Shown here piece after piece: positions 2,952-55,896 of a stretch of 64,000 nucleotides of DNA. Position numbers and translations under genes: made by a program. The notes beneath the pieces were generated by a model, which searched no databases, was not told the DNA's origin, and worked only from the letters and a program-made list of their open reading frames with translations. Origin of the DNA: Mobula hypostoma (taxonomy: Eukaryota); NCBI RefSeq assembly GCF_963921235.1, contig NC_086097.1, positions 129,582,001-129,646,000 on the forward strand. Direction: 5' to 3'. Position 1 is the first letter of the stretch. Each line of letters opens with the position of its first letter.

Positions 2952-3055
2952 GTGAAAAATTTTGCTGTTATTTACCTTGTGGATATCACCGAGGTACCAG
3001 ACTTCAACAAGATGTACGAGTTATATGATCCATGCACTGTTATGTTTTTCTTCCG
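2952..3055 (+). CDS. TXNL4A: TXNL4A coding exon 2, 104 nt
   Basis: Acceptor TTTTTAG|GTG; encodes VKNFAVIYLVDITEVPDFNKMYELYDPCTVMFFF(R); donor CG|GTATGT. Confidence 0.98.
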
Positions 3056-6009
3056 GTATGTAAAATCATAGTTCTAAGTCAGAGTAGCACAAATTGTCAC
3101 AACCTTTCAACTACCTTTTATAAGATCTGTAGTTTGGTAATTGATTAGAGTAAGTTCTGCATTTTGTAAAGAGTAATGCTGTTGTCATCAAACATCATCA
3201 AGTCTGGTGCTTCACTAGTCTAGTTTGTGATTACAATGCAACTTCCTAAATTTTGCAGAAGGTAGAAAATCCCTAAGTGAAGCTGCTCACATTATCTTCG
3301 CTCTGCCGCTGGTATTCTGGTGCATTGTTGTGCTTTCTGAGTCTATAAACTGCATATTAGGTTGCTTATTCAGATTATGGTGTTCTTCCCCTTATGTATT
3401 TATTGTTTTTTAACTTAACTTTTGCATTCATAGCCAGGCTGGATTGTTTATAAGTGCAGTCTGTAGTAGATCACTATTGTAAGAACATTACAGCCTTAGG
3501 TAAAACAGATAACTTGGTTGTCCTCCACACTGAAGAAATGTTTCATCCCTGATTAACGTATACCTTCAGCTGTGTCATTAAAGGGTTTCTGTTCCTTCTG
3601 CTAACTGACCTGCTGACCTCTTCTACTATTTTACTTGTTGCTCCTTTCCATCGCAATTTACTGAATACCTTTTTGCCTTTTTATCTTTAAATACCTTTTT
3701 CCAATAATTGGTCTTATAGTAGGCATTGATATTACTTTCCATTATTCCTGATAAAATACCAGTGATCTGATTGGTTGCCATCAGATCATCGGCAACCTTA
3801 GTGCGCAAATGTTTTGCCCCATATTTCTGTTACCTCAAGGCACCATAAGAAATGGCTGTGGGAATAGGCCATGTGACCCCCCCCACCCCCTTTAATTTAC
3901 TGCACCACTCATTGAGAGTCTGACTGCTACTTTAATCATTACTTTCCCCATACCTCCTTTAATATCCAGACATTTATGAGTCTTTTTTGAATACAATTAA
4001 TGCTGAAGCTCTGCAGCCCATGGGGGAAGAGTTTTCTGAAGATATTTGTGAGGTTTTTCCTCATTTCAGTTCCAAATGGACTGTCCCAATTGTTTTTAAT
4101 CTTAGCTGATAGTTCCTTGGGAGGGATTTATGCACTCAGCATTTTCTTCCAACAAGTTAATGCATAATTTGTACTTCTGCACTGCTAGCTTCTGTTAATT
4201 CATGATACCGTGGCTACCATATATAGTGTTACAAACACCCAACTTTTGGATAAGAACAAACTTCCTTCATAATATTAAATACAGAAATCAAACATAGAGC
4301 ACACATTTGTTCCTACAAATGCAGAAGTATTTACTACTCTCTCCAGTGTTGTTTCTTATCAGTCTTATGTGTTTTTGATACCATTCATTACAATACTGTG
4401 GAGGTATGCCTGATCATATCAAGTGATTTTTGTGTCTTCTGACTTTTCAACTTTTGACATCATTGATTTGTAGATTTTTGACAAAATTGACTTATGGACA
4501 TCTGTATAAACACAACCCATTTTTTTACCCAAGGGTGGCCTGAAATTGTTTTTACTAATTTGAAATTTGACTTCTAAAAGGGACTCGATGACAGTTTAGG
4601 GAATTTCTTGCCGTAAATTTGACAGATGGAAGAAAATTCTGTAAGATCAGAAGCTGACTAGCAGACTTGTACTAGGCATTCAGATTAATTGCAATCTATT
4701 CACTAGAACTGTTAACAAAAGTGCCAATATCCTTTAGTTTTTCGTGAACATACCTGAGTTCATGCTAAGTTAGGCACATGGACAGAAACAAAAGGAATAG
4801 CATTGGCAAATAAACCACTGAAACAGGATATTGTACCATCTGGTTTTAATACTAAAGGAGATTTGCAGTAGCAGGCCAAATATTTATTTTTGAACAAATG
4901 ATGTAAAAAGGTGGGTTATTATCAAATACTAGTGTTGACTGATGAGTAATTATCAGTATCCTCACTAACACACTGCTTCATGTAGATTCATGGTTTTACT
5001 ATCAGCAGAAATAATTTATCTTCAGATTTTCCCCAGATATTTGTGTTTCATCTCAACTATTTTTAGATGAATAATAAAATTGCTTGCTTGCCATTTATTG
5101 TTGACTGTAATTGAAATTGTCTGCTGCATTGGCCAATTCTCCTACAATGGGCAGCACTGTACCAAAACCTCTGCACTACATTTAAAGGTCAGTTAGCACA
5201 GATACTTTCTGGAGTGCACCAGGATGACAAATAAGTTACTCAGGTTGCTCAAAGGAAAACATCATAAGTCAGGAACAACAATTAGCAAAATCAGCAAATA
5301 ATATGATTCTGGTGTTGCATTACATGATAACATTTGACATGAATTACAGGTATGTGGATGAGAAATTGAATTGCCAAGGCATAGGAGTATCTGGTCCAAG
5401 TGCCAGTGAATGGGATTGTATAGATGGGTACTTGAGGGGCTGCTTCTGTGCTGCATGAATCAAAAAAGGCTGGACTTCCAGCTCTCCCAGTCATCACCTA
5501 AATTTGTGAATGTGCTATATATTCTGATCTATTTCTGAAGAAATAAGGGCCAGGGTTTGAGGTAAGATGCCTGCATTCACTACTGCCTTCCAAGGAAGTA
5601 CATACACATGTATATCCCATAGCAGGAACTTGAGGGTGATGCTGATTGAATCCATTTTTGCACGGCCATTTGTCAAGCAGTGTCTTCTCTGCCATGACGG
5701 GATCAGATGGTGGTAATGTGAACACCTTAAGAAAAATGCTGGAGACATATTTTAACCAGTGGAGCTATGGCCCTTGACTTAGCTGGCTGGCATTCACAAA
5801 GATTTTTAAAAAACTATTTAAACTAGTAAAAACGTTCATAAGTAATGAATATATCAAACCTTTAAATCCAAGTAGTTCTAAAAGATCTAATTACCTAATG
5901 TGTTAGTCTCCTTCCTTTGAGGCAAACCTCAAGGAGAGTTCATACTGTAAGTGTAGAACAGTAGATCCAAGTTACTCTTTCTACCAAGACTCCAGTGTTG
6001 GAATAGTAG

Positions 6010-11920: not shown

Positions 11921-13410
11921 TATGAGACTGTCAGTTACCCATGCATGCAGGACATATCTCCAGAATGTCCACTGCAATAATCATTCCAGTTACTGGTTTT
12001 TCTGATCATAGTAAGTAGTACTGAAATATTATTTACACTGACCTATACTACATTGTACTTTAGGCAATAGTTTTTAAAAAAAATTATTTGCAGATTAGCA
12101 GCCATCCAAAGTCCTCATAATATTACTTTCCTCCAGAACAAATGTGTGCAGGTCAGTGATGGGCTTCTGGACGATGCAGTGCTGAAAATGGAATAGAATA
12201 ACATGCAATTACATACTACCTTTCACTCAGTAAAAAATCCCTTCACATTGACAGAAGCAAGGATATTGAACAGTTTAAAAGCAGAAAGAATTGAACAGCA
12301 TACAATGGGTCAATACCACTTCATTACTTCTCTGATGAAATGTATTGATTCAAACATTGTTTCCTGGTATTATATCATCAAAGTATATAGCTGCTATCAA
12401 AAGGAAGTGATTTTAATAATTAAATTTGGAAAATTGGATTGAATTCCAAAAAAAGAGAAGCTAATGTAAACAAGTAAAGCTTGTGGACTCGAAGTGTGCA
12501 CTAAGACTGGCAGTAAGTACTTCATGATAAATCTGCTTATCACTTCAATCAAAGTTTTTAAAAATTCTTACTTTCTTTGTCATAAAGTGTGACTATCATT
12601 GCTCAAAATCTTTTAAAATGCTAGCACTATTAGACTTAATTGAGTTAAACTGTTAAGAATATCAATTTTTAAAAATTGGTTCCCTGTGAATACTTGGAAG
12701 TATACTTATGAAAGTATGTTGTCGTTTCAGATTATAATTACTCATTTGACAGTTTACAGACTTGCATTTTCCCTGGGTATCAATTTGGCCTACACAGAAA
12801 TTTAAGAGAATGAATGTTTCTGTAATTCAGTTTTGAAAAAAAATTGAACTAAACAGGATTTTATGGGCAAACATGCAGTTTAATGCTCTTCAGATCCAAA
12901 AATGCCAGAATCATCTTGGTTAATGCAGATTTGTATCCACAAAAGGTTTGCAATTGATTTCGTACAAAGGAAAAATGAGTAGCTACAGTAAATGTAGATG
13001 ACTGTTGTTCGCAGATACAGCCTTGAATTGGGTGTTAGTTTTTATCAGCCTTATTCAGGAAGAACAATGACCTATGTTTAAAGCTAAAGACATCAATTGC
13101 TTTAAGAGTAGACAGCAAATTGGCTAATCAGATGTCAGGCATAAATGGTGTTTTGGTTGGTAAAATTGTAAAGAGTGATATGTCATAGCATTGATGCTGA
13201 ACAACTTTATTAGTATCTTGAGTGAAGGTATAGTTAACTTTGTTGCTGACATAGAGATAGGCAGTACAGTAAGTGGTGAGGATATAAGTCAAAAGTCAAG
13301 TTTATTTTCATATGCATAAGTACATGCATGCACAGATACAATGAAAATCTTATCCACAACAAGATCACAGGCATATAAACAGCATTCAGACAGATGAAAA
13401 CTACAAGATG

Positions 13411-13870
13411 TTCATGCCACTTGAGATACTGAATGGCATCAAAGTCTCCCCATTTAACAGAACAAGGCCACTCATGTCATTGTGGAAGAGACGGACGAGA
13501 TTGACGAATCTGTGCGGGAACCCAAGTTTTAACAGCACCCCTCATAGGGTCTCCTGTCAACCATATCGAAGGCTTTGGTTAGATCTATGAAGACAGCAAG
13601 TAGTTGCAAATTCTGTTCAGTACTTTTCTTGAATCTGACGAACGGTGAAAACCATGTCGACAGTACTATGGCCTGGGCAAAAGCCACATCGTGCCTTAGG
13701 AAGGTTCACCTCTGATATGTTGGCAATCAAGCAGTTGAGGATAATGTGAGCTAAGATTTTCCCCCTGACAGACAGGAGAGATATGCCCTGTTAGTTGCCA
13801 CAGTGAGCTCTGCTACCTTTGAGCAGTGTAACAATTATGGCGTCCCTTAAGTCCTCAGGCATGTTTTCAG
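13411..13870 (-). mobile_element. RTE-clade LINE, inverted 5' segment (RT N-terminal half)
   Basis: Minus strand encodes decayed PEDLRDAIIVTL..GN*QGISLLSVRGKILAHIILNCL..CGFCPGHSTVDMVFTVRQIQEK..VFIDLTKAFD..FSISSGM. Confidence 0.9.
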
Positions 13871-16800
13871 GCAAAGGTGCATACTGGCGCCTGTATAGTT
13901 TAATCTGGTCCTCATGTACATACTACACCACATATTCGGCACCATGCAATGTGGGTGTGCAGGATGGATGGATCACTTTTTGACCTGTGTCGCTTGAGCA
14001 CCCGTACAAAAACAATCAGTAATCCAATTCAAGAAGACCTATACACTGATTACTGTATCCCCATGGCTCACACAGAGGCCAATCTTCTGCTGTTTGTCGA
14101 TAGGTTTGCGGAAGCCAGTTGTCTGTTTGGCCTCATCATCAGCCTGCAAAAGGTGAAAGTCCTGTTCCAACCCAGCCAACATCTGCTGCATCCACCCCAT
14201 CCATCTGCATGAAGGTACACAGCTTACAACAGCGGGAGAATTCAAATAGCTCGGAAGTGTTATTTCTAGTGATGGCTCCCTAGACAAAGAAATCAGTGCT
14301 ATGATTTGCAAGGCCAGTCAAGTCCTTGGGCACTTGTATTCACGCGTCCTGAACCAGCATAACAATCAAAAAGCCACGAAATTCAGGGTGTACAAAGCGG
14401 TCATCCTTTGTAGTCTATCATACAGCTGTGAAATTGGTAAAGGTGCTGAGGAAGAGGATTTCTTGGAATGTATGCGGGATGGTTTTTTGAACCAACATGT
14501 CGAGGAACCAACTAGAGAGCAGGCTATTCTGGACTGGGTTTTGAGCAATGAGGAAGGGTTAATTAGCAATCTTGTCGTGAGAGGCCCCTTGGGTAAAAGT
14601 GACCATAATATGATGGAATTCTTCATTAAGATGGAGAGTGACATAGTTAATTCAGAAACAAAGGTTCTGAACTTAAAGAGGGGTAACTTTGAAGGTATGA
14701 GACGTGAATTAGCTAAGATAGACTGGCAAATGACACTTAAAGGATTGACGGTGGATATGCAATGGCAAGCATTTAAAGGTTGCATGGATGAACTACAACA
14801 ATTGTTCATCCCAGTTTGGCAAAAGAATAAATCAAGGAAGGTAGTGCACCCGTGGCTGACAAGAGAAATTAGGGATAGTATCAATTCCAAAGAAGAAGCA
14901 TACAAATTAGCCAGAGAAAGTGGCTCACCTGAGGACTGGGAGAAATTCAGAGTTCAGCAGAGGAGGACAAAGGGCTTAATTAGGAAGGGGAAAAAAGATT
15001 ATGAGAGAAAACTGGCAGGGAACATAAAAACGGACTGTAAAAGCTGTTATAGATATGTAAAAAGGAAAAGACTGGTAAAGACAAATGTAGGTCCCCTGCA
15101 GACAGAAACAGGTGAATTGATTATGGGGAGCAAGGACATGGCAGACCAATTGAATAATTACTTTGGTTCTGTCTTCACTAAGGAGGACATAAATAATCTT
15201 CCAGAAATAGTAGGGGACAGAGGGTCCAGTGAGATGGAGGAACTGAGTGAAATACATGTTAGTAGGGAAGTGGTGTTAGGTAAATTGAAGGGATTGAAGG
15301 CAGATAAATCCCCAGGGCCAGATGGTCTGCATCCTAGAGTGCTTAAGGAAGTAGCCCAAGAAATAGTGAATGCATTAGTGATAATTTTTCAAAACTCGTT
15401 AGATTCTGGACTAGTTCCTGAGGATTGGAGGGTGGCTAATATAACTCCACTTTTTAAAAAAGGAGGGAGAGAGAAACCGGGGAATTATAGACCGGTTAGC
15501 CTAATGTCGGTGGTGGGGAAACTGCTGGAGTCAGTTATCAAGGATGTGATAACAGCACATTTGGAAAGCGGTGAAATGATCGGACAAAGTCAGCATGGAT
15601 TTGTGAAAGGAAAATCATGTCTGACGAATCTCATAGAGTTTTTTGAGGATGTAACTAGTAGAGTGGATAGGGGAGAACCAGTGGATGTGGTATATTTGGA
15701 TTTTCAAAAGGCTTTTGACAAGGTCCCACACAGGAGATTAGTGTGCAAACTTAAAGCACACGGTATTGGGGGTAAGGTATTGGTGTGGGTGGAGAATTGG
15801 TTAGCAGACAGGAAGCAAAGAGTGGGAATAAACGGGACCTTTTCAGAATGGCAGGCGGTGACTAGTGGGGTACCGCAAGGCTCAGTGCTGGGACCCCAGT
15901 TGTTTACAATATATATTAATGACTTGGATGAGGGAATTAAATGCAGCATCTCCGAGTTTGCGGATGACACGAAGCTGGGTGGCAGTGTTAGCTGTGAGGA
16001 GGATGCTAAGAGGATGCAGAGTGACTTGGATAGGTTGGGTTAGTGGGCAAATTCATGGCAGATGCAATTTAATGTGGATAAATGTGAAGTTATCCACTTT
16101 GGTGGCAAAAATAGGAAAACATTATTATCTGAATGGTGGCTGATTAGGAAAAGGGGAGGTGCAACGAGACCTGGGTGTCATTATACACCAGTCATTGAAA
16201 GTGGGCATGCGGGTACAGCAGGCGGTGAAAAAGGCGAATGGTATGCTGGCATTTATAGTGAGAGGATTCAAGTACAGGAGCAGGGAGGTACTACTGCAGT
16301 TGTACAAGGCCTTGGTGAGACCACACCTGGAGTATTGTGTGCAGTTTTGGTCCCCTAATCTGAGGAAAGACATCCTTGCCAGAGAGGGAGTACAAAGAAG
16401 GTTCACCAGATTGATTCCTGGGATGGCAGGACTTTCATATGAAGAAAGACTGGATGAACTGGGCTTGTACTCGTTGGAATTTAGAAGATTGAGGGGGGAT
16501 CTGATTGAAACGTATAAGATCTTAAAGGGATTGGACAGGCTAGATGCAGGAAGATTGTTCCCGATGTTGGGGAAGTCCAAAACGAGGGGCCACAGTTTGA
16601 GGATAAAGGGGAAGCCTTTTAGGACCGAGATTAGGAAAAACTTCTTCACACAGAGAGTGGTGAATCTGTGGAATTCTCTGCCACAGGAAACAGTTGAGGC
16701 CAGTTCATTGGCTATATTTAAGAGGGAGTTAGATATGGCCCTTGTGGCTACGGGGGGTCAGGGGGTATGGAGGGAAAGCTGGGGCAGGGTTCTGAGTTGG

Positions 16801-17480
16801 ATGATCAGCCATGATCATAATAAATGGCGGTGCAGGCTCGAAGGGCCAAATGGCCTACTCCTGCACCTATTTTCTATGTTTCTATGTTTCTATGAAATCT
16901 GGACCATATCCAGAAGCCACCTTAAAATGCTGTAACCCTTCCATACAAGAAGCCTGAGATCAATCCTGGGCATCCGTTGGCAGGACCATGTCACCAACTG
17001 GAAGTCCTTGAAAGAGCAGAGCAAGTACAGAAGCATTGATCCTGCAAGCTCCGCTTTGCTGGACATGGCATGCTAGATGCATGGGGGATTCCAGAATACC
17101 CAAGCATTTGCTATACGGGGAACTGTCGCCAGGAAGAAGAGGCAGGTGGTGACCTCGTAAGAGGATCAGGAACTGTGTGAAAGCCATCCTCGTGCATGCG
17201 GACATTGCGTCTAAGCAGCTTGGGCAGAGTGCTCAGGACTGGACTGGATGGTGAGCCTCCAACAACTTTGAGAATAGTCACCTTGCAGATTTGGGCACTG
17301 ATCGAGAGAGGAGGAAAGTGGCCACATCAGCTGCACCTACAGTGCCTGGACGGTTTACCTGCCCCTACTGTCAACATTCATGCCTTTCTAGAGTCAGACT
17401 GCAGAGCCACCTCAGAACGCACAATTGACGAGCTGCACAGAGAAACATCATCGTCAGACACGACAGGCAACCAACTCATT
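13871..17480 (+). mobile_element. RTE-clade LINE, sense 3' segment, interrupted by a CR1 at 14435-16892
   Basis: [48 protein letters not shown]; resumes after the CR1 with IWT..LRWHG..RIPKHLLYGEL; RTE-like 3' end CATCATCGTCAGACACGAC. Confidence 0.9.
14435..16892 (+). mobile_element. Young 5'-truncated CR1 (HER1-like) LINE; ORF2 broken by one stop (16041-16043) and one frameshift (~16120)
   Basis: EN C-terminal motif SDH; RT motifs [34 protein letters not shown]; (TTTCTATG)n tail; TGAAAT at both junctions. Confidence 0.97.
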
Positions 17481-17814
17481 GGATAAAATAAAACACAACC
17501 TTTACAAGAAACGAAGAGTTAAAACAAAAGAAAAGTCAACTTTAGTGCAAATTGATCAAAGTGGTTATAGTGTTGCTAAACTATAGTAATTAGGGTTGTG
17601 TGGGTTGGTTCAAGAACCAAATGCTGATGAGATGTACCTGTTCTTATACCCAGTGGTGTGGGACTTCAGGGTTTGTATCTCTTGCCTGATGATAGCTGCA
17701 TGGCCTGAAATGGTGAGGATCTTTGATGCATATTGCCTTCTTTAGTCAATGGGTACTATTGATGGTGGGGAAGTACGTGTCAATGATGTATTAGTCTGAG
17801 TCCACTACTCTGCT

Positions 17815-18010: not shown

Positions 18011-20733
18011 AGATATTATCCCCCTGCTACTCACCTTTCATCCCACCAGCCTCTTCATTCTATACACCATTCTTTGCAATTTTCAGCATCTTTAACAAAT
18101 TTCTATCACACCTTCTCCTTCTTTCTCCACTCCCTGCTTCGATTGTACATCTCCACCAGCCAATCCCTTCTCTAGGCAATTCCTCGTGAAACCACAGGGG
18201 ATGCGACAATTATTCTTCCACCTCATCCATTTTCACCAACCAGGGTTCCAAGAGTCCTTCTAGGTGAATCATTCATTTCTTAAAACATTTTGTGAGCACC
18301 AAAAGTAAAACACAAGGTTCCCTTTTTCATTAGAGTCACTAAATGTAGATTGGGTGAAATCTGTCAAAATCTGAGGATTAGACTGGTGGATTTTTGCAGA
18401 TCCATTTCAAACAAATTAACATCCTTCCTTAAATAAGTAGACCACTATTGTATATAAAGTATTCCAACTGTGGTCTTGCCAATGCTGTACATAACTGAAT
18501 ACACATAATTTCATAGCAATTAACAATATTGTTAGCTCCCTTAATCACTCACTAAACCCACATACTGTACCCACATCAGGCACTTGTAGAATACCTCAGA
18601 GCTCTGAAAATACTCATTTAGATATTGTCTTTTTTAAATGCCCTGCCAAAAAAGATAGGTAGATGTTTTCCCATATTATATTCTACTTATTAGATCTTTG
18701 TCCTTACACTTAACTTGACTCTATCTTTTTTGTAAAAGACCGTTCCTTTATTCAGGACCCTCACTGAGGAAGGCCAGTGTGCTCGGCACCTTCACACCAC
18801 ACTGTCTACCTATGACATCTCTTCTAATGAACTATGCACTTGTGTTTCTAGGTTCCCCTGTTCCATTACGCTACCTAGTGCCTTACTATTTATAGTATAA
18901 GTCCAACACTGATTTGACTTTCCAAATTCCATCATGCCATACTTAACTAAGTTGAAATCTATTTGCCACTCCTCAGCCCACTTCTCTAATCAATCAAGTT
19001 CCCCTGTAATCTATAATACCATTTTCATGATCAAAAACACCTCCCAATCTGTGTCATCTGTAAATTTACTGATCGAGCCTCGTGTGATTGCATTCATATC
19101 ATTTATATAAGTAATGAATAATCCCTGCAGCAGACTACTGGTCACAAGCCTTCATTCCAAGAAACAACTATTAGATGTCATCCTCTGCTTCTTACATCTG
19201 AGCCAATTTTGAATCAACCTAACTTGTTCCCTGGATTTCACGGGACCTAACCTTCAACTGCCCACTGACATCATCTTTCTTTATAGTTGCCTCTTCAAAA
19301 AACTAAGCATTTCATTATGCACAAACGCATGCTGATTCCTCCAAATCAGATTCTGTCTATCCAAACACTGCTAGATCCTGCCCCTTCAAATTCCTTCCAA
19401 TAATTTGCTCACTACTGATATCATGCTGACCAAAGTTCAAAAGAAAGTTATTATCAAAGTACTTATATGTCACCATATACAACACCGAGATACAATTTCT
19501 TGCGGATGTGCTTAATAAATCCATAATAGAATCGGTGAAAAACCGCACCAACTTGGGCACTCAACCATCGTGCAAAAGGCAACAGACTGTGCAAATACAA
19601 AAAGAAAGAAATAATACATAGGCAATAATTATCAAGAACATGAGATGGTAAGTCCACAGGTTGTGGGAACATTTTATTGATGGTGCAGAGAAGTTGAGTA
19701 AAGTTATCCTCACTAGTTCAAAAACCTTATGGTTGAGGGTTAATAACTGTTCCTGAACCTGGTGGTGTGGATCCTGAGGCTCCTGTACTTTCTTCCTGAT
19801 GGCAGCAGTGAGAAGTGATTTTAACCTGGGTGATGGGGTCCCAGATGATAGATGCTTTCCTATGACAATGATCCCTGTAGGTGTGCTCAACGGTGGGGTA
19901 GACTTTACCCATGATGGACTGGGCCTTATCCACTACTTCTTGTAGGATTTTCCATTCAAGGGCATTGGTGTTTCCATACCAGGCTGTAATGCAAGCAGTT
20001 AATATACTCTCCACTACACAGCTATAGAAGTTTGTCGAAGTTTTAGATGGCATGCCGAATTTTCACTAGCTCCTAAGGAAGTGGAGGCACTGGCTGTTTC
20101 CTTTGTCATTGCTTGGCCCAAGGCTGGTCCTCCAAAATGATAACACAGTGGAATTTAAAGTTGCTCACCCTCTCCACTTCTATTCCCCTGATGAGGACTG
20201 GCTCATGACCTCTGGCTTCCTCATCCTGAAGTCAAAAATCAGATCCTTGGTCTTGTACACATTGAGTAGGAGGTTGTATTATGGTACCTCTCAGCCAGAT
20301 TTTCAGTATCCCTCCAATATGCTAATTTGCGCCCCTCTTCTTTTGGTCTAAGACAGTGGTGTCATCAAAAATCTTGAATATGGCACAGGAGCTGTGCTTA
20401 GCCAGACAGTCATAAGCGTAAAGTGAATAGAGCAGGGGTTAAACGCACAGCCTTGTGACACACCTGTGCTGATGGAGATTGTGGAGGAGATGTTGTTACC
20501 AATCTAAACTGACTGGGGTCTGCAAGTGAGGAAATCGAGTATCCAATACCACAGGGAGGTATTAAGACCAAAGTCTTAAAGTTTATTGATTAGTTTTGAG
20601 GGGATGATGGTATTGAATACAAAGCTGTAGTTGATAGAGAGCATCCTGGTGTATGCATCTTTGCTGTCCAGATGTTGAGTGAAGATGGCATCTGCTCTGG
20701 ATCTGTTGTTTTGGTAGGCAAATTGGAGCAGAT

Positions 20734-20829
20734 GTTAGTCCTGACGAAGGGTCTCGGCCTGAAACGTCGACTGCGCCTCGTCCTATAGATGCTGCCTGGC
20801 CTGCTGCGTTCACCAGCAACTTTGATGTA
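20734..20829 (+). mobile_element. 96-bp Penelope-derived insertion with 10-bp TSD inside the Rex1 element
   Basis: TGGAGCAGAT at 20724-20733 and 20830-20839; body nearly identical to 38722-38788. Confidence 0.85.
20736..20773 (+). ncRNA. Minimal type-I hammerhead ribozyme motif of the Penelope-associated kind
   Basis: TAGTC-CTGACGA-AGGGTCTCGGCCT-GAAAC-GTC-GACTG: stem I TAGTC/GACTG, intact core, short stem II, loop-less palindromic stem III (ACGT); predicted cut after 20768. Confidence 0.7.
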
Positions 20830-21381
20830 TGGAGCAGATTCAAGTTACTTCTCAAGTGGGAGTTGATGCGTTTCATTACCAACTTTTCAAAACACTTCAT
20901 CACTGTGGATGTAAATGCCATTGGATGATAGTCATTGAGGCTGGTTACCACGTTCTTCTTGGGCACTGGTATAAGTGAAGCTTGAAGCAGATGGATACCC
21001 CAGACTGCCAAAGCAAGAGTTTAAAGATATCAGTGAACACTCCAGTCAGGTTTAGTACTTGGCCAGGTACCCCGCATGGGCTGGATGCTTTATGTGGATT
21101 CGCCCTCCTGATGGCTGCTCCCACTTTGGTCTCAGAGACTGAAATCACAGGATCATTGGGTACTGTGGGAGACTGTGATGGATCCCCCATGTTTTGATGG
21201 TCAAAGCGAGCACAAAAGGCACTTTAACTCTATGTGGATTTTGCAAAGAGCCAGAATAGCGATGTTGTGGTAGTTAATAGGTTATTCCTATGACATTTAG
21301 CTAGCCGCCCCCAAAGGGGAGGAGTTCATATACTGTACAAGCAGGGTTATTGATAAAGTTCGGTTGCGTATCCTGCATGCT

Positions 21382-21518: not shown

Positions 21519-22831
21519 AATGGCTTCATCACAGCATTGTGTACCCCATCAGACAACTGTGCATATGGAAATCTGAGAGGTGAGCTCATTAGAGACAGGA
21601 TTGTTGCCGGGCTACCAGACAGCAAACTATCAGAGAGACTTCAGTTGTAGGCAAATCTTACACTCGTGAAAGCTATTACTCTGGTCAGGCAGAGGGAAAG
21701 TGTTCATCAGCAACAGGCAGAACTCAGGCATGAAAATGATGCTGAGGTTCTAGATTCAAATAAAGAATGGTTCAGTTGTAAAATGAGGCAGTAAGGTTCA
21801 GAATAGACACTGGGGCAGATGTCACAGCCATCCCTCAATGTCTATTTGCAGTAAACAGGCATTACACCAAACCCAACAAAGAAAGTGCCCATGGGGCCAG
21901 GGAACCATTAGCTCAGTGTGAAAGGAATGTTTGCTACTTCCACCCGTAAAAATGAGAAACAGTTAAAAGAGGATGTCTATGTTGTTCAGAATCTCTTCTG
22001 ACCACTTCTGGGATGACATGCCGTTGAGAAGCTGAACCTCCTTGCTAGGCTGGATTGTCTGAACAATGTTCAGTGGCAGGAGAAGTACCCAGAGTGTTTG
22101 CACAGGCCTGGGGATACTGAAAGAAGAGTACTATACCCAACTGAGGCCAGGTGCGACGTCCTACTCTCTGACCACATTGAAGTACATAACAGTTGCATTG
22201 ATGAACAAAGTCAAAGCTGAACTTGAGGGAGCGGTGGTACTGAACATCATAACTAGAGAGAATGCACCTACTGACTGGTGTGCAGGCATTGTTCCTCTTC
22301 CCAAGCCAGATGGTGCAGAGAGGATAAGTGTTGATCTAATAAAATTGAATAATGCAGTGAGGCAGAAGAAGTTTATTCTGCCCTCTGTTGAGCACACAGT
22401 TGGGAGATTATGTAAAGTAATGTGAAGCATGCAGAAAGCTGCACAAAAATCATGCTGAACCTCTCTATCCCATAGAAATCCCAGACTTTCCACGGCAAGT
22501 TGCAGGAACAGGCATCTTCGAGCTAAAAAGAGACATTATAAACTCTCACTGTAGAATACTCTCACAGAATGTTGAAGTGTCCAAGCTGTCTTCTACATCC
22601 TTAGCAGCTGTTATACAGCACCAGAAAGCTGTATTCACTCACCGTGGAATACCAGAGACACTTGTGATAGGCAACGGTCCAGAATTCAGCTGCTCTGAAT
22701 TTAAAGCCTTTGCTAGGGACAATGAGCTGAAACACAAGCACTCACACGGAACCCACAGGCAAGCAGAGAAGTGGTAAGAGCAGTGCAAATTGCTAAGAGT
22801 CTCCTACTAAAAGCAAAAGTACCCTACAAAT

Positions 22832-23866
22832 GACTACACACAAAATGCTGGAGGAACTCAGCAGGCCAAACAGCATCTATGGAAAAAAGTACAATTGACA
22901 TTTCGGGCTCATTGGTGAAAGAGATACAGGGCTGGAGAAGGGGAAATCTGAAAGGAGAGGACAGAAGGATATGGAAGAAAGAAAAGGAGGAGGAGTACCA
23001 GAGGGAGGTGATGGGCAGGTAAAGAGATAAGGTGAGAAAGAGAGAAATGGGAATGGGGAATGGTCAGTGGGAGCAACATTACTGAAAGTTTGAGAAAACA
23101 GATGTTCACGCCATCAGGTTGGAGGCTACCCAGACGGAATATAAGGTTTCGCTCCTCTAACCTGAGTGTGGCCTCATCGCAACAGTAGAGGAAGCCATGG
23201 ACTGACATGTCGGAATGGGAATGGGAAGCGGAATTAAAATGGGTGGCTACTGGGAGATCCTGCTTTTTCTGGTGGATGGACCGTAGGTGTTTGTCAAAGC
23301 GGTCTCCCAATCTGTATCAGACCTCACTGATATACAGGAGGCCACACCGGGAGCACTGGATACAGTAGATGACCCTAACAGACTCATCTGGAAGGACTGT
23401 TTGGGGCTCTGAATAGTAGTGAGAGAGGAAGTGTAGGGGCAGGTGTAGCACTTGTTCCACTTGTAAGGTTAGGTGCCAGGAGGGAGATTAGTGGGGAGGG
23501 ACGAATGGACAAGGGAGTTGCGTAGGGAGTGATCCCTGCAGAAAGCAGAAAGTTGGGGGGGGGTGGGGGGAGGGAAAGATGTGCTTGTTGGTGGGAAACC
23601 ACTGGAGCTGGCAGAAGCTCCGGAGGTTATGTGTTAGACGCAGAGGCTGGTGGGGTGGTGGGTGAGGACAAGAGGAACCCTATCCCTGGTGGGATGGCAG
23701 GACGATGGGGAGTGGGCAGACGTGCGCTTAATGGAAGAGGTGTGTTTGAGGACGGTGTTAATAGTGGAGGAACGGAAGCCCCTATCTTTGAAGAAGGAGG
23801 AGATCTCCTTAGTTCTGGAATGAAAAGCCTCATCCTGAGAGCAGATGCAGTGAAGATGGAGGAATT
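22832..23866 (-). mobile_element. Penelope-like element 3' part (GIY-YIG endonuclease remnant) inserted in the Gypsy integrase
   Basis: ORF 22909-23310: GDRFDKHLRSI..PVATHFNS.SHSHSDM..RLEERNLIFRLGSLQPDGVN; integrase frame is split between ..PYK and LLVYHSTP. Confidence 0.9.
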
Positions 23867-30249: not shown

Positions 30250-31570
30250 TTATTCATACCAGTGTATTGTCGCTAACACTATGCACTCCAGTTTTTCATT
30301 TAAAGACATATAAAACTTATAAGACATCTGTGTCATGGTGTTGTTGGGTCTTCTCCGGTTTCTGTTCTGCAGGTGGAAATGGATCAGATGCCATTGTATT
30401 TGCAAAGACTGCAGATGGCTATGAATGGTTGGGCACACTTCTGTGGTCATGAGGATAATCATCCAACTAAGAATATATTGAAAGATTGTTGGAACATCAA
30501 GAGTACTTTCCTTTACCTAGGGTAGATTTGACTCTTCGGTCGAACATGCCCAGAGGTAGTGATGACTCTATTATGCATCATCAATATCATGGAATGGTTC
30601 CAGCATTTACAGATGGTTCTAAAGACCCAGTGTCTCATAACGCCAGTGTAGCAGTCTATGACCCAGAGCTTCAGGTGTCAATTAGAAAAAGGTTATCTAA
30701 TAAACTTTCAGTTTATACTATTGAAATGGTGGCAATCCTTCTTGCATTGCCATGGATAGGGGATGTACAGCCTAACCGTGTTGTCTGTTCTGATTCTTTC
30801 TCCGTATTGTGTAGTCTTAAGGTGGGTGTGTCTTGTAATCGTCCAGACATCTTGTGGAAAGATAGACAAACATTATTACAGCTGCAGTATTTAGGAGCGT
30901 ATGTCTGCTTTTTGTGGATCCCAGCTCATGTAGGGGTGGAAGAAAATGAAGTAGTCAAAAGGCTGGCTCAACAATCTATGAAGGCAAGTGCTGTTGATAC
31001 TGATATTCCACTAAGTAAGGGGGAGGCAAAGGTTTTAACTAAGGACCATGTTCTCTCAATCTGGCAGGGACTGTGGGATACACAATTGAAGGGGAAACGG
31101 TTAAGTGGAATACAGGAAAAGGTTACTCCACTTTGGAGGAGAGGAAGACCCAGAAGGGAAGTAATGAGAACTACTGGACCATACTGGTTTAAATGCCATA
31201 AGGTTCAGACTTGGTCAACATAGTTCAGGTGAAAGTAGACAGTGTCAACTTTCAGAGAAAGTCCCACATGTATTATTGGAATGTAGGGCATGTGAGTGGG
31301 TGAGAAAGCACACCTGGGAAGCAATATTGTTACTTTGGATAGCTTGGTGGGTTTATGGCAGGAGAGAAGTATGAGCAAGTATATAAATCTGTAAAACTTG
31401 TTGGGTAGTTTTATACAATTTAAGTCAATAGCATTGGGGTTTATATTTATAAGTCTTATCCTTATTAATGGTGTCATTTCTTCTTGGGGGTGGTGTTGGT
31501 GGTAGGTGTTACGGCCACTCTCCTGAATCCTCCTCACACTTCCGTTCAGTAGGTGGCGGTAATGCACTTT
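30250..31570 (+). mobile_element. RNase H-encoding non-LTR retrotransposon (I/Nimb type), 3' part
   Basis: ORF 30486-31223: FTDGSK, SVYTIEMVAILLAL, CSDSFS, WIPAHVGVEENE; upstream SPVSVLQVEM..MPL; downstream HVLLEC zinc-knuckle end; 3' motif GTAGGTGGCGGTAATGCAC. Confidence 0.85.
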
Positions 31571-31575
31571 TTCAA

Positions 31576-31730
31576 AAACACTAGAAAATCTGCAGAAAAC
31601 GCACACAAAATGCTGGAGGAACTCAACAGATGGGGTCCTGCTTGAAGAAGGGTTTCGGCCCGAAACGTCAAGCGTTTTCCCTTTTCCATAGATGCTGCCT
31701 GGCCTGCTGAGTTCCTCCAGCGTTTTGTGG
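31576..31730. mobile_element. Penelope-derived fold-back element with a hammerhead-like loop
   Basis: CACAAAATGCTGGAGGAACTCA / TGAGTTCCTCCAGCGTTTTGTG arms; loop TTGAAGAAGGGTTTCGGCCCGAAACGTC. Confidence 0.7.
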
Positions 31731-38633: not shown

Positions 38634-38831
38634 AGCAACACACATCAAAGTTGCTGGTGAACGCAGCAGGCCAGGCAGCATCTGTAGGAAGAGGTGCAGT
38701 CGACGTTTCAGGCCGAGACCCAAACGTCGACTGCACCTCTTCCTAGAGATGCTGCCTGGCCTGCTGCGTTCACCAGCAACTTTGATGTGTGTTGCTTGAA
38801 TTTCCAGCATCTGCAGAATTCCTGTTGTTTG
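38634..38831. mobile_element. Young Penelope-derived fold-back insertion: 76-bp inverted arms, 14-bp TSD
   Basis: Arms 38633-38708 / 38722-38797 with one mismatch; AGACTTGTCTTTTA at 38620-38633 and 38832-38845. Confidence 0.92.
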
Positions 38832-39649
38832 AGACTTGTCTTTTATTCTGTCGGCAACATGCAGACAAATCAAAATCCCACTTTTGAAGGCCACTCATTT
38901 TCCAAGCTTTGCCTGACAAAAGACCTATCCCAATCCACACCTGCCTGGCCCGAAATGTCGACTGTACCTCCTCCTATAGATGCTGCCTGGCCTGCTGCGT
39001 TCACCGGCATTTTTTGTGTGTGCTGCCAAAGTTGGCCTCGGATGGTTATGCGCAAAATGTAGACAAATGGACTAGTTCGGGAAGACATACTGGTTGACAT
39101 AGCTGAGTTGGGCCTAAGAGACTGCTTCTGTGCTGTAAACTCTTTGACTTTATTTTCTTAAATAGCATGTAAAATGAGTTAGATCGCAGATTACCCATGA
39201 TGCGATTGAATGGTAAAACAGATTTGGGTTAAAGGCTCTTCCTGTTTCTTTAAAATGAACATGATAAAATAAGTGGCCAATATTTTACTACCATGATAAT
39301 CTTGCTGATAAATACCATAAATTTAAGCTGTTCTATTCGTCAATTTTTCACTATGGGTTCTCATCAGTCTGCTAAAAATGCCCCAGAATTTTCTGAATGT
39401 TCCTTGAGGGGGTGGCACTTGGCACTGAGGGTCTAGGCCCAGTGTTGCAGAATCAGCAATTTTTGCAGTATGTATAGCCACAGACATTACGCAGAACGCA
39501 TGCGTAAGATCCCTACTTACAGTTAACATTTTTTGTAGCTTGAGAAATTCAAAAGCAGTAAGTATCTGGTACATTCAAAACTAGAAAATTGAAGTATGTG
39601 TTAGTCTTGGAATCAGAATGATGATTTTTAGGTTACTTACAAGTTAAAC

Positions 39650-43911: not shown

Positions 43912-46277
43912 CAGAACAGGCCATTTTAGACTGGGTATTGAGCAATGAGGAAGGATTAGTTAGCAATCTTGTCGTGCGAGGTCCCTTGGGTAAGAGTGAC
44001 CATAATATGGTGGAATTCTTCATTAAGATGGAGAGTGATATAGTTAATTCAGTAACAAAGGTTCTGAACTTAAAGAAGGGTAACTTTGAAGGTATGAGAC
44101 GTGAATTAGATAGACTGGCAAATGATACTTAAAGGGTTGACGGTGGATATGCAATGGCAAGCATTTAAAGATCGCATGGATGAACTACAACAATTGTTCA
44201 TCCCAGTTTGGCAGAAGAATAAACCAGGGAAGGTAGTGCACCTGTGGCTGACAAGAGAAGTTAGGGACAGTATTAATTCCAAAGAAGAAACATACAAATT
44301 AGCCAGAAAAAGTGGCACACCTGAGAAGTGGGAGAAATTCAGAGTCCAGCAGAGGAGGACAAAGGGCTTAATTAGGAAAGGGAAAAAAAGATTATGAGAG
44401 AAAGCTGGCAGGGAACATAAAAACTGACTGTAAAAGCTTTTATAGATATGTGAAAAGAAAAAGATTGGTTAAGACAAATGTAGGTCCCTTACCGTCAGAA
44501 AGAGGTGAATTGATCATGGGGAACAAGGACATGGCAGACCAATTGAATAACTACTTTGGTTCTGTCTTCACTAAGGAGGACATAAATAATCTTCTGGAAA
44601 TAGTAGGGGACAGAGGGTCCAGTGAGATGGAGGAACTGAGGGACATTCATGTTAGTAGGGAAGTGGTGTTAGGTAAATTGAAGGGATTAAAGGCAGATAA
44701 AGTCCCCAGGACCAGATGGTCTGCATCCCAGAGTGCTTAAGGAAGTAGCCCAAGAAATAGTGGATGCATTAGTGATAATTTTTCAAAACTCTTCAGATTC
44801 TGGATTAATTCCTGAGGACTGGAGGGTGGCTAATGTAACCCTGCTTTTTAAAAAAGGAGGGAGAGAGAAACCGGCGAATTGTAGACCGGTAAGCCTGACA
44901 TCAGTGGTGGGGAAAATGCTAGAGTCAGTTATCAAAGATGTGATAACAGCACATTTGGAAAGCGGTGAAATCATTGGATAAAGTCAGCATGGATTTGTGA
45001 AAGGAAAATCATGTCTGACAAATCTCAGAATTTTTTGAGGATGTAGCTAGTAGAGTGGATAGGGGAGAATGAGTGGATGTGGTATATTTGGATTTTCAAA
45101 AGGCTTTTGACAAGGTCCCACATAGGAGATTAATGTGCAAACTTAAAGCACACGGTATTGGGGGTATGGTATTGATGTGGATAGAGAATTGGTTGGCAGA
45201 CAGGATGCAAAGAGTGGGAATAAACGGGACCTTTTCAGAATGGCAGGCAGTGACTAGTGGGGTACCGCAAGGCTCAGTGCTGGGACCCCAGTTGTTTACA
45301 ATATATATTAATAACTTAGACGAGGGAATTAAATGCAGCATTTCCAAGTTTGCGGATGACACGAAGTTGGGCGGCAGTATTAGCTGTGAGGAGGATGCTA
45401 AGAGGATGTAGGGTGACTTGGATAGGTTAGGTGAGTGGGCAAATTCATGGCCGATGCAATTTAGTGTGGATAAATGTGAGGTTATCCACTTTGGTGGCAA
45501 GAACAGGAAAATAGGTTATTATCTGAATGCTGGTCGATTAGGAAAAGGGGAGGTGCAACGAGACCTGGGTGTCATTGTATACCAGTCATTGAAAGTGGGC
45601 ATGCAGGTACAGCAGGCGGTGAAAAAGGCGAATGGTATGCTGGCATTCATAGCAAGAGGATTCGAGTACAGGAGCAGGGAGGTACTGCTGCAGTTGTACA
45701 AGGCCTTGGTGAGACCACACCTGGAGTATTGTGTGCAGTTTTGGTCCCCTAATCTGAGGAAAGACATTCTTGCCATAGAGGGAGTACAAAGAAGGTTCAT
45801 CAGATTGATTCCTGGGATGGCAGGACTTTCATATGAAGAAAGACTGGATCGACTAGGCTTATACTCCCTGGAATTTAGAAGATTGAGGGGGGGATCTTAC
45901 TGAAACGTATAAAATTCTAAATGGATTGGACAGGCTAGATACAGGAAGATTGTTCCCGATGTTGGGGAAGTCCAGAACGAGGGGTCACAGTTTAAGGATA
46001 AAGGGGAAGCCTTTTAGGTCCGAGATGAGAAAAAACTTCTTCACTCAATGTGGTGAATCTGTGGAATTCTCTGCCACAGGAAACAGTTGAGGCCAGTTCA
46101 TTGGCTATATTTAAGAGGGAGTTAGATATGGCCCTTGTGGCTAAAGGGATCAGGGGGTATAGGGAGAAGGCAGATACAGGGTTCTGAGTTGGATGATCAG
46201 CCATGAGCATACTGAATGGCAGTGCAGTCTCGAAGGGCCGAATGGCCTACTCGTGCACCTATTTTCTATGTTTCTAT
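43912..46277 (+). mobile_element. 5'-truncated CR1 LINE, same subfamily as 14435-16892, with several frameshifts
   Basis: Collinear and highly similar by eye to 14518-16886; RT motifs; TTTTCTATGTTTCTAT tail. Confidence 0.96.
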
Positions 46278-48296: not shown

Positions 48297-49959
48297 AAAC
48301 ACAAGAGGTTCTACAGATGTTGGAAATCTTGAGCAACACACACAAAATGCAGGAGGAACTCAGCAAGTCAGGCAGCATCTGTTGAGGAAAATAAACAGTT
48401 GATGTTTTGAGCTGACTCCCTTCAACAGGACTGGAAATGTGAAAGGTGCAGAAGCAAGAATAAGACAACTGGGGGAGGGGAAGGAGTACAGCTGGCAGGT
48501 GATGTATGTGAGACCAAGTGACGGGGAGGTGGAAGGGTGGGGAAGATGGGATGAAGTGAAAAGCTGGGAGGGGATAGGTGGAAGAGGTAAACGGCTGAAG
48601 GAAGAATCTAACAGTACAGTGGAGCATGGAAGAAAGGGAAGGAGGAGGGGAACTAGAGGGAGGTGATGGCGAGGTGAGGGATGAAAGGGTAACCTGAATG
48701 GAAATGGAAAAGTGGGGGTGGGGGGGAGAAATTACTGAAGCTTAGAGAAATTGATGTTCATACTATCTGGTTGGAGGTTCGCCAGACAGAATGTTAAGTG
48801 TTGCTCTTTCAATTTGAGTTTGGCCACATTATAGCAGTAGAGGAGGCCATGGACAGGCATATCAGAATGGGAATTGGGATTAAAATGGGTAGCCGCTGGG
48901 TACCCTGCCTTTTGTGGTGGAACGAGTGAAGGTGCTTGACTGAGCAGTCCCCGAATCTGCATTAGGCCTTGCCAATGTAGAGGGGACCGCACAGGGTTCA
49001 CTGAATATAATAGATGACCTGACCTGACAGACTTGCTGGTGAATTGTCACTTCTCCTGTAATGACTGTTTAGGGCCTGAACGGTGGTGAAGAAGGAGGTG
49101 TATCCAGCACATTATTCTCCGTAACTTCTGACATCTCGAATGGGATCCTACCACTAACAACATCTTTCCCTATTCTGCCTACGTGACTCTGTGTGATCCC
49201 CTTGTCCACTCATCGCTCCTCACTGATCTCCCTTCTGGCACTTATCCCTGCAAGCATAGCAAGTGCAACACTTGCCCCGATACCTCCTCCCTGACTACCA
49301 TTCAAGATGCTTCTCTTTTACATTGGTGAGACCAGACGTTGACTGGGGGAAACCACTTCATCAAGCACCTTTGCTCTGTCTGCAGCAAAAGGCAGATTCT
49401 CAGTGGCTAACCATTTCAATTCCTTTTCCCATTCCCATTTTGGCATGTTTTTCCATGGTTGTCTCTACTGCATTAGAAGCCCAAACGGGTAGGAGGAGCA
49501 ACACTTCATATTCAATCTGGCTAGTCTGATGGCATGAACATCAATTTCTCTAATTTCTGGTTGTTTCTTTCCCCTTCCCTCCTCCTCTCTTTTTCATTTC
49601 CCATTCTGATTTCCCCTCTCACCCCTTCTTTTCTCCTTACTTGCCTGTCACCTCCCTCCGGTGCCCCCTCCTCCTTTCCTTTCTTCCATGGTCCACTGAG
49701 GTCTCCAATTAGTTTGCTCTTTCTTCAGCCCTTTTCTACCTCCACCTATCACCTTCCAGCTTCATATTTCATCCCCACTCCCTCATCCGCCCAAGTTCCA
49801 TCTCACTTGTTAGCTTGTTCTCCTCCCCCTCTGGCTACCTGCTTATTCTGGATACTACCCCTTTCCAGTCCTGATGAATGGTCAGAGCCTGAAACATTGA
49901 CTGTTTATCCCCTCCATAGATGTTGCCTGACCGACTGAGTTCCTCTGGTAATTTGTGTG
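48297..49959. mobile_element. Penelope-like insertion made of a minus-strand (48297-~49100) and a plus-strand (~49101-49959) 3' segment
   Basis: GIY-YIG remnants on both strands (PAATHFNPNSHSDM..NLQPDSMNINFS; YIGET..MNINFS); decayed 14-bp TSD TTTATTATTAACTT / TTTATCACTAACTT. Confidence 0.85.
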
Positions 49960-54454: not shown

Positions 54455-55896
54455 CAGGAGTGCTAGAAAGTTAAACCCTATAGAATATTCTTTATTTCTG
54501 CATAATTATGACCTAAAATGTGATCAGATCTTCATGCAAGTCCTAAAACTAGATAAAGAGAACCCAATTAAATAAATAACACAAAAACATTGTACTTGTT
54601 TATTTGTTTATTGAGAAAAATTAACTAATATTGCATGTATCTGTTGGAAAAAGTATGTGACCCTTTGCTTTCAGTAACTGCTGTGACGCACTTGTACAGC
54701 AGTAACTTCAACCAAATGTTTTCGGCAACTGTTGATCAGTCCTGCACATCAGCTTGGAAGAATTTTAGGTGATTCCTCCCGACAAAACTGCTTCAACTCT
54801 GGAATGTTGGTAAGCTTCCTGACACAAACCGCTTGCTTCAGGTCCTTTCACAACATTTCTCTAGGATTACAGTCAGGACTTTGACTCGGCCATTCCAAAA
54901 CACTAATTTTCTTCTTTTTAAACCATTCTATTGTTGATTTACTTTGGTCTTCCGGATCATTGGCTTGTTTCATTATCCAACTTCTGTTAAGCTTCAGGTG
55001 TTGGACTGCTTCCCTGACATTCTCTTGCAAAATGTCTTGATACAATTTTGAATTCACTATTCCCTCCTTGATTGCAAACTGTCCAGGCCCTGAGGCAGCA
55101 AGGTGGCCCCAAACCACAATGTTCCTTCCACCACGCTTCATAGTTAGGATGAGGTTTTGGTGTTGATGTGCAGTGCCCTTTTCCCTCCAAACGTAGCAAT
55201 GTGCATTTCTTCCAAAAAGTTCAACTTTTGCTCATCTATCTACAAAACATTGTCTCAGAAGTGCTATAGAGCATCCAGATGGTCTTTTGCAAACTTGAGA
55301 TGTATAGCAATTGTTTGTTTGTTTGTTTTTTTTTTGGAGAACTGTGGTGTCCTTCCATGAGCACCATTCTTGTTTAGTATTTTTCTTTTAGTGGATACAA
55401 GAACAGAGATTTTAGCAAGTTTTTGAGAATTCTGTAGGTCTTTTGAAATGTTTTTGTAGCCTTTTCCAGCTTTATGCAATTCTTTTTCTAAGGTCCGCTG
55501 AAGTTATTTTGATTGAGACATGGTGCACATATGGATCTTTCTTGAAAAGAGTAGGCTGTGTCAGTAACCTGACTTGTGTGTCTTTTTTATAGGGCAGGCA
55601 CCTCTACAACCCACACCTCCAATCTCATCTCATTGATTGGAACACTCAACTCTAAATAGCTTTTGTAGAAGGTATTACCCCAGAGGTTCATATACCTTTT
55701 CCAACAAATATATGTAATATTGGATCATTTTTCTCAATAAATAAATGAACAAGTATAATGTTATGCATTATTTATTTAATTGGGTTTTCTTTGTCTACTT
55801 TTAGGACTTGCATGAAGATCTGATCACATTTTAGGTCATATTTATGCAGAAATTAGAGAAAATTCTACAGGGTTCACTAACTTTCTAGCATCACTG
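54455..55896 (-). mobile_element. Tc1-type DNA transposon with ~210-bp TIRs and a defective transposase
   Basis: Long inverted repeats (CAGGAGTGCTAGAAAG.. / ..CTTTCTAGCATCACTG|TA); HKAGKGYKNISKDL, GGRNIVVWG, WPSQSPDCNPRE. Confidence 0.93.

Follow-up and report, generated by a model that had tools for sequence, protein, structure and literature searches.

A 5'-truncated copy of an RTE-type LINE in the genome of Mobula hypostoma carries a 5' inversion that was probably made during insertion, by twin priming. The copy lies within the 64-kb stretch of DNA analysed here (64,000 nucleotides; hereafter the window) and consists of an antisense piece from the 5' side of the element followed by a sense piece from its 3' side, with the RNA-3' end of the antisense piece at the outer flank. 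In the mechanism that we favour, the endonuclease would have nicked the 3' UTR of an older LINE. Starting from the tail of the RNA, the first nick would have primed cDNA synthesis for 1,141 nt, up to the K codon of the G-x-K-Q-G motif; the 3' end of the other strand would have primed internally at this same codon, and its extension would have covered 459 nt in the direction of the RNA 5' end. The two cDNA ends would then have been joined. Because no duplication rises above chance and microhomology is unscorable, twin priming is something that we infer at this locus; what the sequence shows is the geometry, the single family and the purity of the inverted block. In its working the copy resembles a twin-primed insertion, and we stop short of counting it among the proven cases.

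Results

Structure of the inverted copy

The features of the locus are as follows.

13290–13410, minus strand: 3' end of an older repeat of very high copy number, which probably represents the distal half of the host LINE 3' UTR (13376–13410 without direct match)
13411–13869, minus strand: 5' segment of the RTE-type copy in inverted orientation, 459 bp, N-terminal half of the reverse transcriptase (aa 521–676 of P0010), with stops and frameshifts; most 3' codon towards the left flank
13870, no strand: single base at the inversion junction, from the alignment of the flipped model; assignable to a segment only through a family consensus
13871–14434, plus strand: sense segment, part 1 (aa 676–867 of P0010); its final 6 bases form the left-hand copy of the CR1 duplication
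14435–16892, plus strand: younger 5'-truncated LINE, which we take to be CR1-like, with a tail of 8-bp units; 6-bp duplication at 14429–14434 and 16893–16898
16899–17428, plus strand: sense segment, part 2 (aa 868–1048), with a C2H2-like finger and the stop codon at its end
17429–17478, plus strand: short 3' UTR and decayed tail; end set at 17473–17478 from its resemblance to the 3' ends in L001, L032, L005 and L013
17479–17793, minus strand: ORF end and proximal 3' UTR of an older LINE, whose other half is probably the left-flank repeat

When the full-length relative P0010 was compared with the window by tblastn, its residues 521–675 matched the minus strand (13868→13413), residues 676–867 the plus strand (13869–14432) and the remainder the plus strand at ~16900–17422; there was no further RTE match anywhere in the window, none to the left of 13413, and a second RTE copy sought within the 64-kb window was not found. 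Nucleotide similarity to the related locus L001 spans exactly 13411–13869, so that the preliminary description, which had placed antisense RTE reverse transcriptase at 13411–13870, was right to 1 nt. Its reading of the two edges of the flip was also borne out. In six-frame translation the final antisense codons at the left flank read S-G-M-(K), and the sense part, which had been said to start at 13871, opens with Q-R-C-I-L-A-P. The claim that flipping the segment restores the motif without a gap holds as well: when the flipped model was aligned to L001 and to L032, the join showed neither gap nor overlap (0 nt). On the 5' side, outside the inverted block, there is no sense element sequence, and the block ends at the truncation point.

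The inverted and sense parts measure 459 and 1,141 nt, ~1.6 kb in all, a sense:inverted length ratio of 2.5. The 3' end of the element is present, with a stop, a 3' UTR and a decayed tail (17426–17478) that resemble those of relatives; the fold of the 3' UTR is no better than that of shuffled sequences (z −0.18). Old and dead, the copy serves no function of its own and stands as the footprint of a mechanism.

The whole span 13411–17480 had been described as an RTE insertion. RTE sequence does lie at both ends, and 14435–16892, occupying 2.46 kb, is a separate LINE, so that the copy is ~1.6 kb and not 4.07 kb long. This insert, presumably of the CR1 clade, has a reverse transcriptase domain (Pfam RVT_1, E=1e-28) and a tandem tail (16867–16894), and self-comparison of the window aligned it at 92.5% identity over 2,375 columns with 43913–46277. 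Removing it together with one copy of the 6-bp duplication restores the RTE frame; it landed in the sense part later than the RTE insertion. The copies at 14435–16892 and 43913–46277 are both 5'-truncated and nearly equal in length, and neither contains an inverted piece in the window self-comparison.

The junctions in contigs of two taxa

The stretch was contained in 8 of the 11 sequencing runs listed, which come from two organisms and two studies. Contigs of four runs, two per organism, were aligned to 12900–14436 at 80% likeness, giving 810–901 contigs per run. In organism A, which is the species of the window and may be the sample behind it, contigs covering 12900–13486 and 13712–14282 showed 0 differences, as did a contig covering 13735–14282 in the second run. 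Organism B, a sister taxon diverged by ~2–3%, yielded a contig for 12900–13486 with 11 other letters and 8 gaps and one for 13735–14282 with 14 other letters and 2 gaps. Each junction is therefore bridged by contigs in both organisms; no contig among those listed carries both junctions. The insertion is older than the split of organisms A and B.

Other copies of the family read collinearly across the flip. Among the 15 joint rows listed (of 30 in all), six are opposite-strand joints: 13411→13882, 13411→13960, 13414→13960, 13420→13961, 13431→13993 and 13449→14059. Alignments of other family copies stop at 13411–13420 and resume on the opposite strand, and in the inverted part other copies diverge from the window copy by 12–16%. 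Since contigs of two taxa bridge the junctions and family copies read across the flip, the structure is not a fault of assembly, nor does it combine two subfamilies.

The preliminary description had singled out two observations as speaking against its reading, namely flank DNA inside the inverted block and segments of different subfamilies or ages. At most one base of the block (13870) is not RTE. When identity to L001 and L032 is expressed relative to the L001–L032 identity, every one of the three parts gives 0.85–0.90; L001 is the first or second match for each part, and the parts, which belong to one family, are alike in decay. Because the block is pure and both segments belong to one family of like decay, an origin coupled to insertion is the best reading.

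Target-site duplication and microhomology

That no duplication is visible, as had been remarked, was upheld by a formal scan. Over 12 × 19 offsets around the insertion the best ungapped match was 8/11, and 77 of 150 random controls did as well; the best gapped score was equalled or beaten by 381 of the 2,000 random windows and by 1,128 of the 2,000 shuffles. Two candidates were rejected because they do not exceed chance: a gapped match of 24 columns, and a 7-base match between the end of the left flank and 17503–17509, which also falls outside the scanned box, ~25 nt from the element end. In simulations, an 11-bp duplication aged by 6–15% per copy beat the observed score in 88–40% of runs and was missed in 12–60%, indels lying outside the model. 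As a true 11-bp duplication would have beaten the observed score in 40–88% of simulations, its absence counts mildly against twin priming.

On the simplest reading there is no microhomology at the outer junction; scoring it needs the empty site or a consensus of the host repeat, and neither of the two organisms with the stretch supplies an empty site, the sister taxon sharing the insertion. The relatives, at 60–63% identity, are too distant to supply the family bases at the inversion junction. Inverted repeats marking both breakpoints, a sign of recombination, were absent among the 12 pairs listed for the first region. The proposal of twin priming by an RTE-clade element is partly supported, as far as geometry, purity and single family are concerned; no duplication above chance was found, and outer microhomology is not scorable.

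The flanks as halves of a probable split host LINE

The RTE copy is likely nested within an older LINE whose two halves form its flanks. In the contig alignment the depth over the left flank (13292–13352) is ~3,000–3,700, compared with ~9 beside it, and the loose ends of these repeat copies diverge to the left of 13292 and follow the window rightwards to ~13377. The right flank matches a LINE copy at 19450–21100 (68% over 92 columns; nhmmer E=3e-7), with a weak match at the protein level; Pfam gave no named domain in the right-flank LINE, and we take both it and the copy at 19450–21100 to be Rex1/Babar-like. The two flanks have the same orientation and the right order for one split element. 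When joined, they align to the 19.5-kb copy through its tail (nhmmer E=4e-9, positions 7–393, with the join at 321), and the contribution of the left half in this test was equalled by 32 of 500 halves made by shuffling and by 10 of 500 drawn at random; alone, the left half did not rise above shuffles, 192 of 1,000 doing as well. The rebuilt host 3' UTR would measure ~220 nt, as against ~200 nt in the copy at 19450–21100. No host-repeat copy of the same subfamily was found in the window. Searches for the host repeat gave 0 matches in genome_contigs and 0 and 3 in viral_contigs, the 3 being chance matches without further likeness.

Other repeats were seen in the window. The LINE copy at 19450–21100 (minus strand) is decayed and is broken at ~20742–20831 by a short repeat that recurs at 31643–31729, 38635–38795, 38947–39026, 22836–22909 and 48301–48423, partly as inverted pairs. 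Inverted repeats of ~210 bp (86.7%) at 54461–55890 flank a transposase-like frame (54848–55231), and we presume this to be a Tc1/mariner-like element. The frames at 22063–22425, 22909–23316 and 30471–31223 are presumably a Gypsy-type reverse transcriptase piece, a Penelope-type endonuclease end and the RNase H of an I/Nimb-type LINE, respectively.

Relatives and 5' inversions in other organisms

With the minus-strand piece as query, 22 relatives were found among 58 candidates, at 45–71% identity. P0010 is 51% identical over the inverted part and has Exo_endo_phos and RVT_1 domains. All nine full-length loci examined have one frame of 1,080–1,154 aa, and three of the nine also have a frame of 161–251 aa upstream; the 3' UTR is ~45–50 nt long and is followed by a microsatellite-like tail, without poly(A), which is clear in the relatives and decayed in the window copy. 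This architecture, together with motifs of the clade, suggests that the element is RTE-type. No named RTE member occurred among the sequences read in seven clusters, and the Atlas and PDB names were generic or referred to L1 or R2 only.

An initial metagenome scan with one protein gave no relative. In a further scan the best 80 of 340 RTE-type stretches, from other organisms and 56–66% identical at the DNA level, were compared with 29 full-length references, and an antisense ORF piece was present in 3 of these best 80 (L051, L060 and L011); many of the 80 may be collapsed consensus contigs, so that this count gives no frequency. In all three the antisense piece is found on the 5' side of the sense part, and its RNA-3' end faces outward. 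L051 (1337–3281) has an antisense piece at 1342–1565, a loss of ~460 nt at the inversion point and a sense part that runs through an intact tail. It is bounded by a perfect 9-bp duplication (1337–1345 and 3273–3281) that overlaps the antisense start by at most 4 nt and touches both ends at 9/9, and only 1 of 200 controls was as good. L051 is the cleaner putative product of twin priming and the better witness; the window copy alone is a weak one. L060 (384–2730) is near full-length, with its whole 5' part, including the UTR, inverted and internally deleted, and with an overlap of 22 nt; a duplication was sought there and none was found. In L011 an antisense piece (1–102) directly precedes the sense part, from which it is 25 nt short on the reference, and is cut by the end of the contig; it could be a 5' inversion or an amplification chimera.

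Discussion

Three alternatives to twin priming at this locus deserve consideration. The first, which we regard as unlikely, is a later inversion accompanied by deletion, in which a longer RTE copy was broken at the K codon, 459 bp were flipped, and the other 5' part was lost together with the left duplication. Such an event would account for the missing duplication and microhomology, and the age of the copy (12–16% divergence in the inverted part) would have left time for rearrangement. Against this, it requires a flush break at one end combined with total loss of the other 5' RTE sequence; by our estimate a random later inversion of this size would fall within 2 nt of the truncation point in ~5 of 1,600 cases. 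The flanks, which look like contiguous LINE halves (UTR ~220 versus ~200 nt), would seem to leave little room for a deletion, a point that the flank comparison supports weakly, and the arrangement is already present in the sister taxon.

Less likely again is an event coupled to insertion by a route other than twin priming: either first-strand cDNA was made as far as aa 521, after which its last 459 nt were severed and reattached in reverse by host end-joining, or the second end primed on another RNA from the same family. These routes would give the same geometry with no need of a duplication or microhomology, and sequence alone cannot separate them from twin priming. Priming of a second RNA at the exact codon where the first cDNA stopped (a gap of 0 nt) would nevertheless be unexpected, and L051 displays the classical hallmarks in an RTE-type element. 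An assembly error, or two unrelated RTE fragments lying side by side, is very improbable even though no contig among those listed spans both junctions and organism A may be the window's own sample, since contigs from two organisms and two studies bridge each junction, both segments find their match in single family copies, and the join is codon-exact. Snap-back of cDNA of the R2 type is excluded, as antisense aa 521–676 repeat nothing of sense aa 676–1048.

Twin-primed, 5'-inverted L1 insertions of mammals were reportedly described by Ostertag and Kazazian in 2001. About 30% of recent human and chimpanzee L1 insertions are 5'-inverted, and 95% of these have microhomology (PMC2912911). At the L1 inversion point 66% show a deletion and 17% a duplication, and the sense:inverted ratio in somatic human L1 insertions is 2.6 (bioRxiv 10.1101/2024.08.27.596794); in 46% of L1 inversions the two ends lie within 20 bp (PMC12016303). 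The window copy is like mammalian twin-primed L1 in its order of flank, antisense and sense, in the adjacency of the two pieces on the RNA, in its 5' truncation and in its ratio of ~2.5 (PMC2912911, PMC4245944, PMC12016303, bioRxiv 10.1101/2024.08.27.596794). Unlike L1, it is RTE-type, with a single ORF and without poly(A), in a non-mammal, and duplication and microhomology are not demonstrable in it; its flush join, moreover, belongs to what is a minority class in L1 (bioRxiv 10.1101/2024.08.27.596794).

Other LINEs offer partial parallels. According to PMC4245944, inversions were seen only for L1 in human cells, with the exception of one Nimb-2_DR insert in chicken DT40 cells, and 5' inversion was concluded to depend on L1 together with human-cell factors, a long 3' overhang being proposed as necessary. 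The Nimb-2_DR insert, with a duplication of ~12 bp (PMC4245944), resembles the present case as a 5' inversion of a non-L1 LINE in a non-mammalian cell; it differs in being one cell-culture event in another clade, whereas here the copies are germline and RTE-type. Snap-back junctions of R2 cDNA have been described (PMC11371274), and there too a non-L1 protein, in the course of insertion, links the flank with antisense sequence of the element; R2 snap-back, however, recopies sequence already in the cDNA, whereas the antisense part in the window lies entirely on the 5' side of the sense part. RTE-clade LINEs have a single ORF and short UTRs (Malik and Eickbush, 1998, cited in PMC13174262), and the relatives found here are like them in having one endonuclease and reverse transcriptase frame of 1,080–1,154 aa, a short 3' UTR and a microsatellite-like tail. 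RTE duplications peak at 10–12 bp (PMC4245944, PMC6007223) a length that would suffice for priming if the overhang model applies (PMC4245944).

In the accessible parts of PMC6007223, PMC4476161, PMC5389967, PMC13174262 and PMC3747384 there is no mention of RTE 5' inversion. We found no published case of RTE twin priming; Kojima and Okada (2009) and Ichiyanagi and Okada (2008) may already report or exclude RTE inversions. The mechanism that we favour is itself known; for its occurrence in this clade and in this host we found no report, and the novelty is provisional.

Taking this locus together with the L051, L060 and L011 samples, we lean towards the view that twin priming is regular in RTE-clade LINEs across animals rather than a speciality of mammalian L1, and that its frequency would be set by the length of the staggered cut (frequent in RTE, with 10–12 bp, and absent in CR1/L2, with 3–5 bp), whatever the host, the tail type or ORF1. 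Neither ORF1p nor a poly(A) tail is present in RTE-type elements. Should these elements twin-prime in the germline of a cartilaginous fish and of other animals, ORF1p and mammalian host factors would both be dispensable, and a single genome with RTE as well as CR1 families would then provide a direct test of the overhang model.
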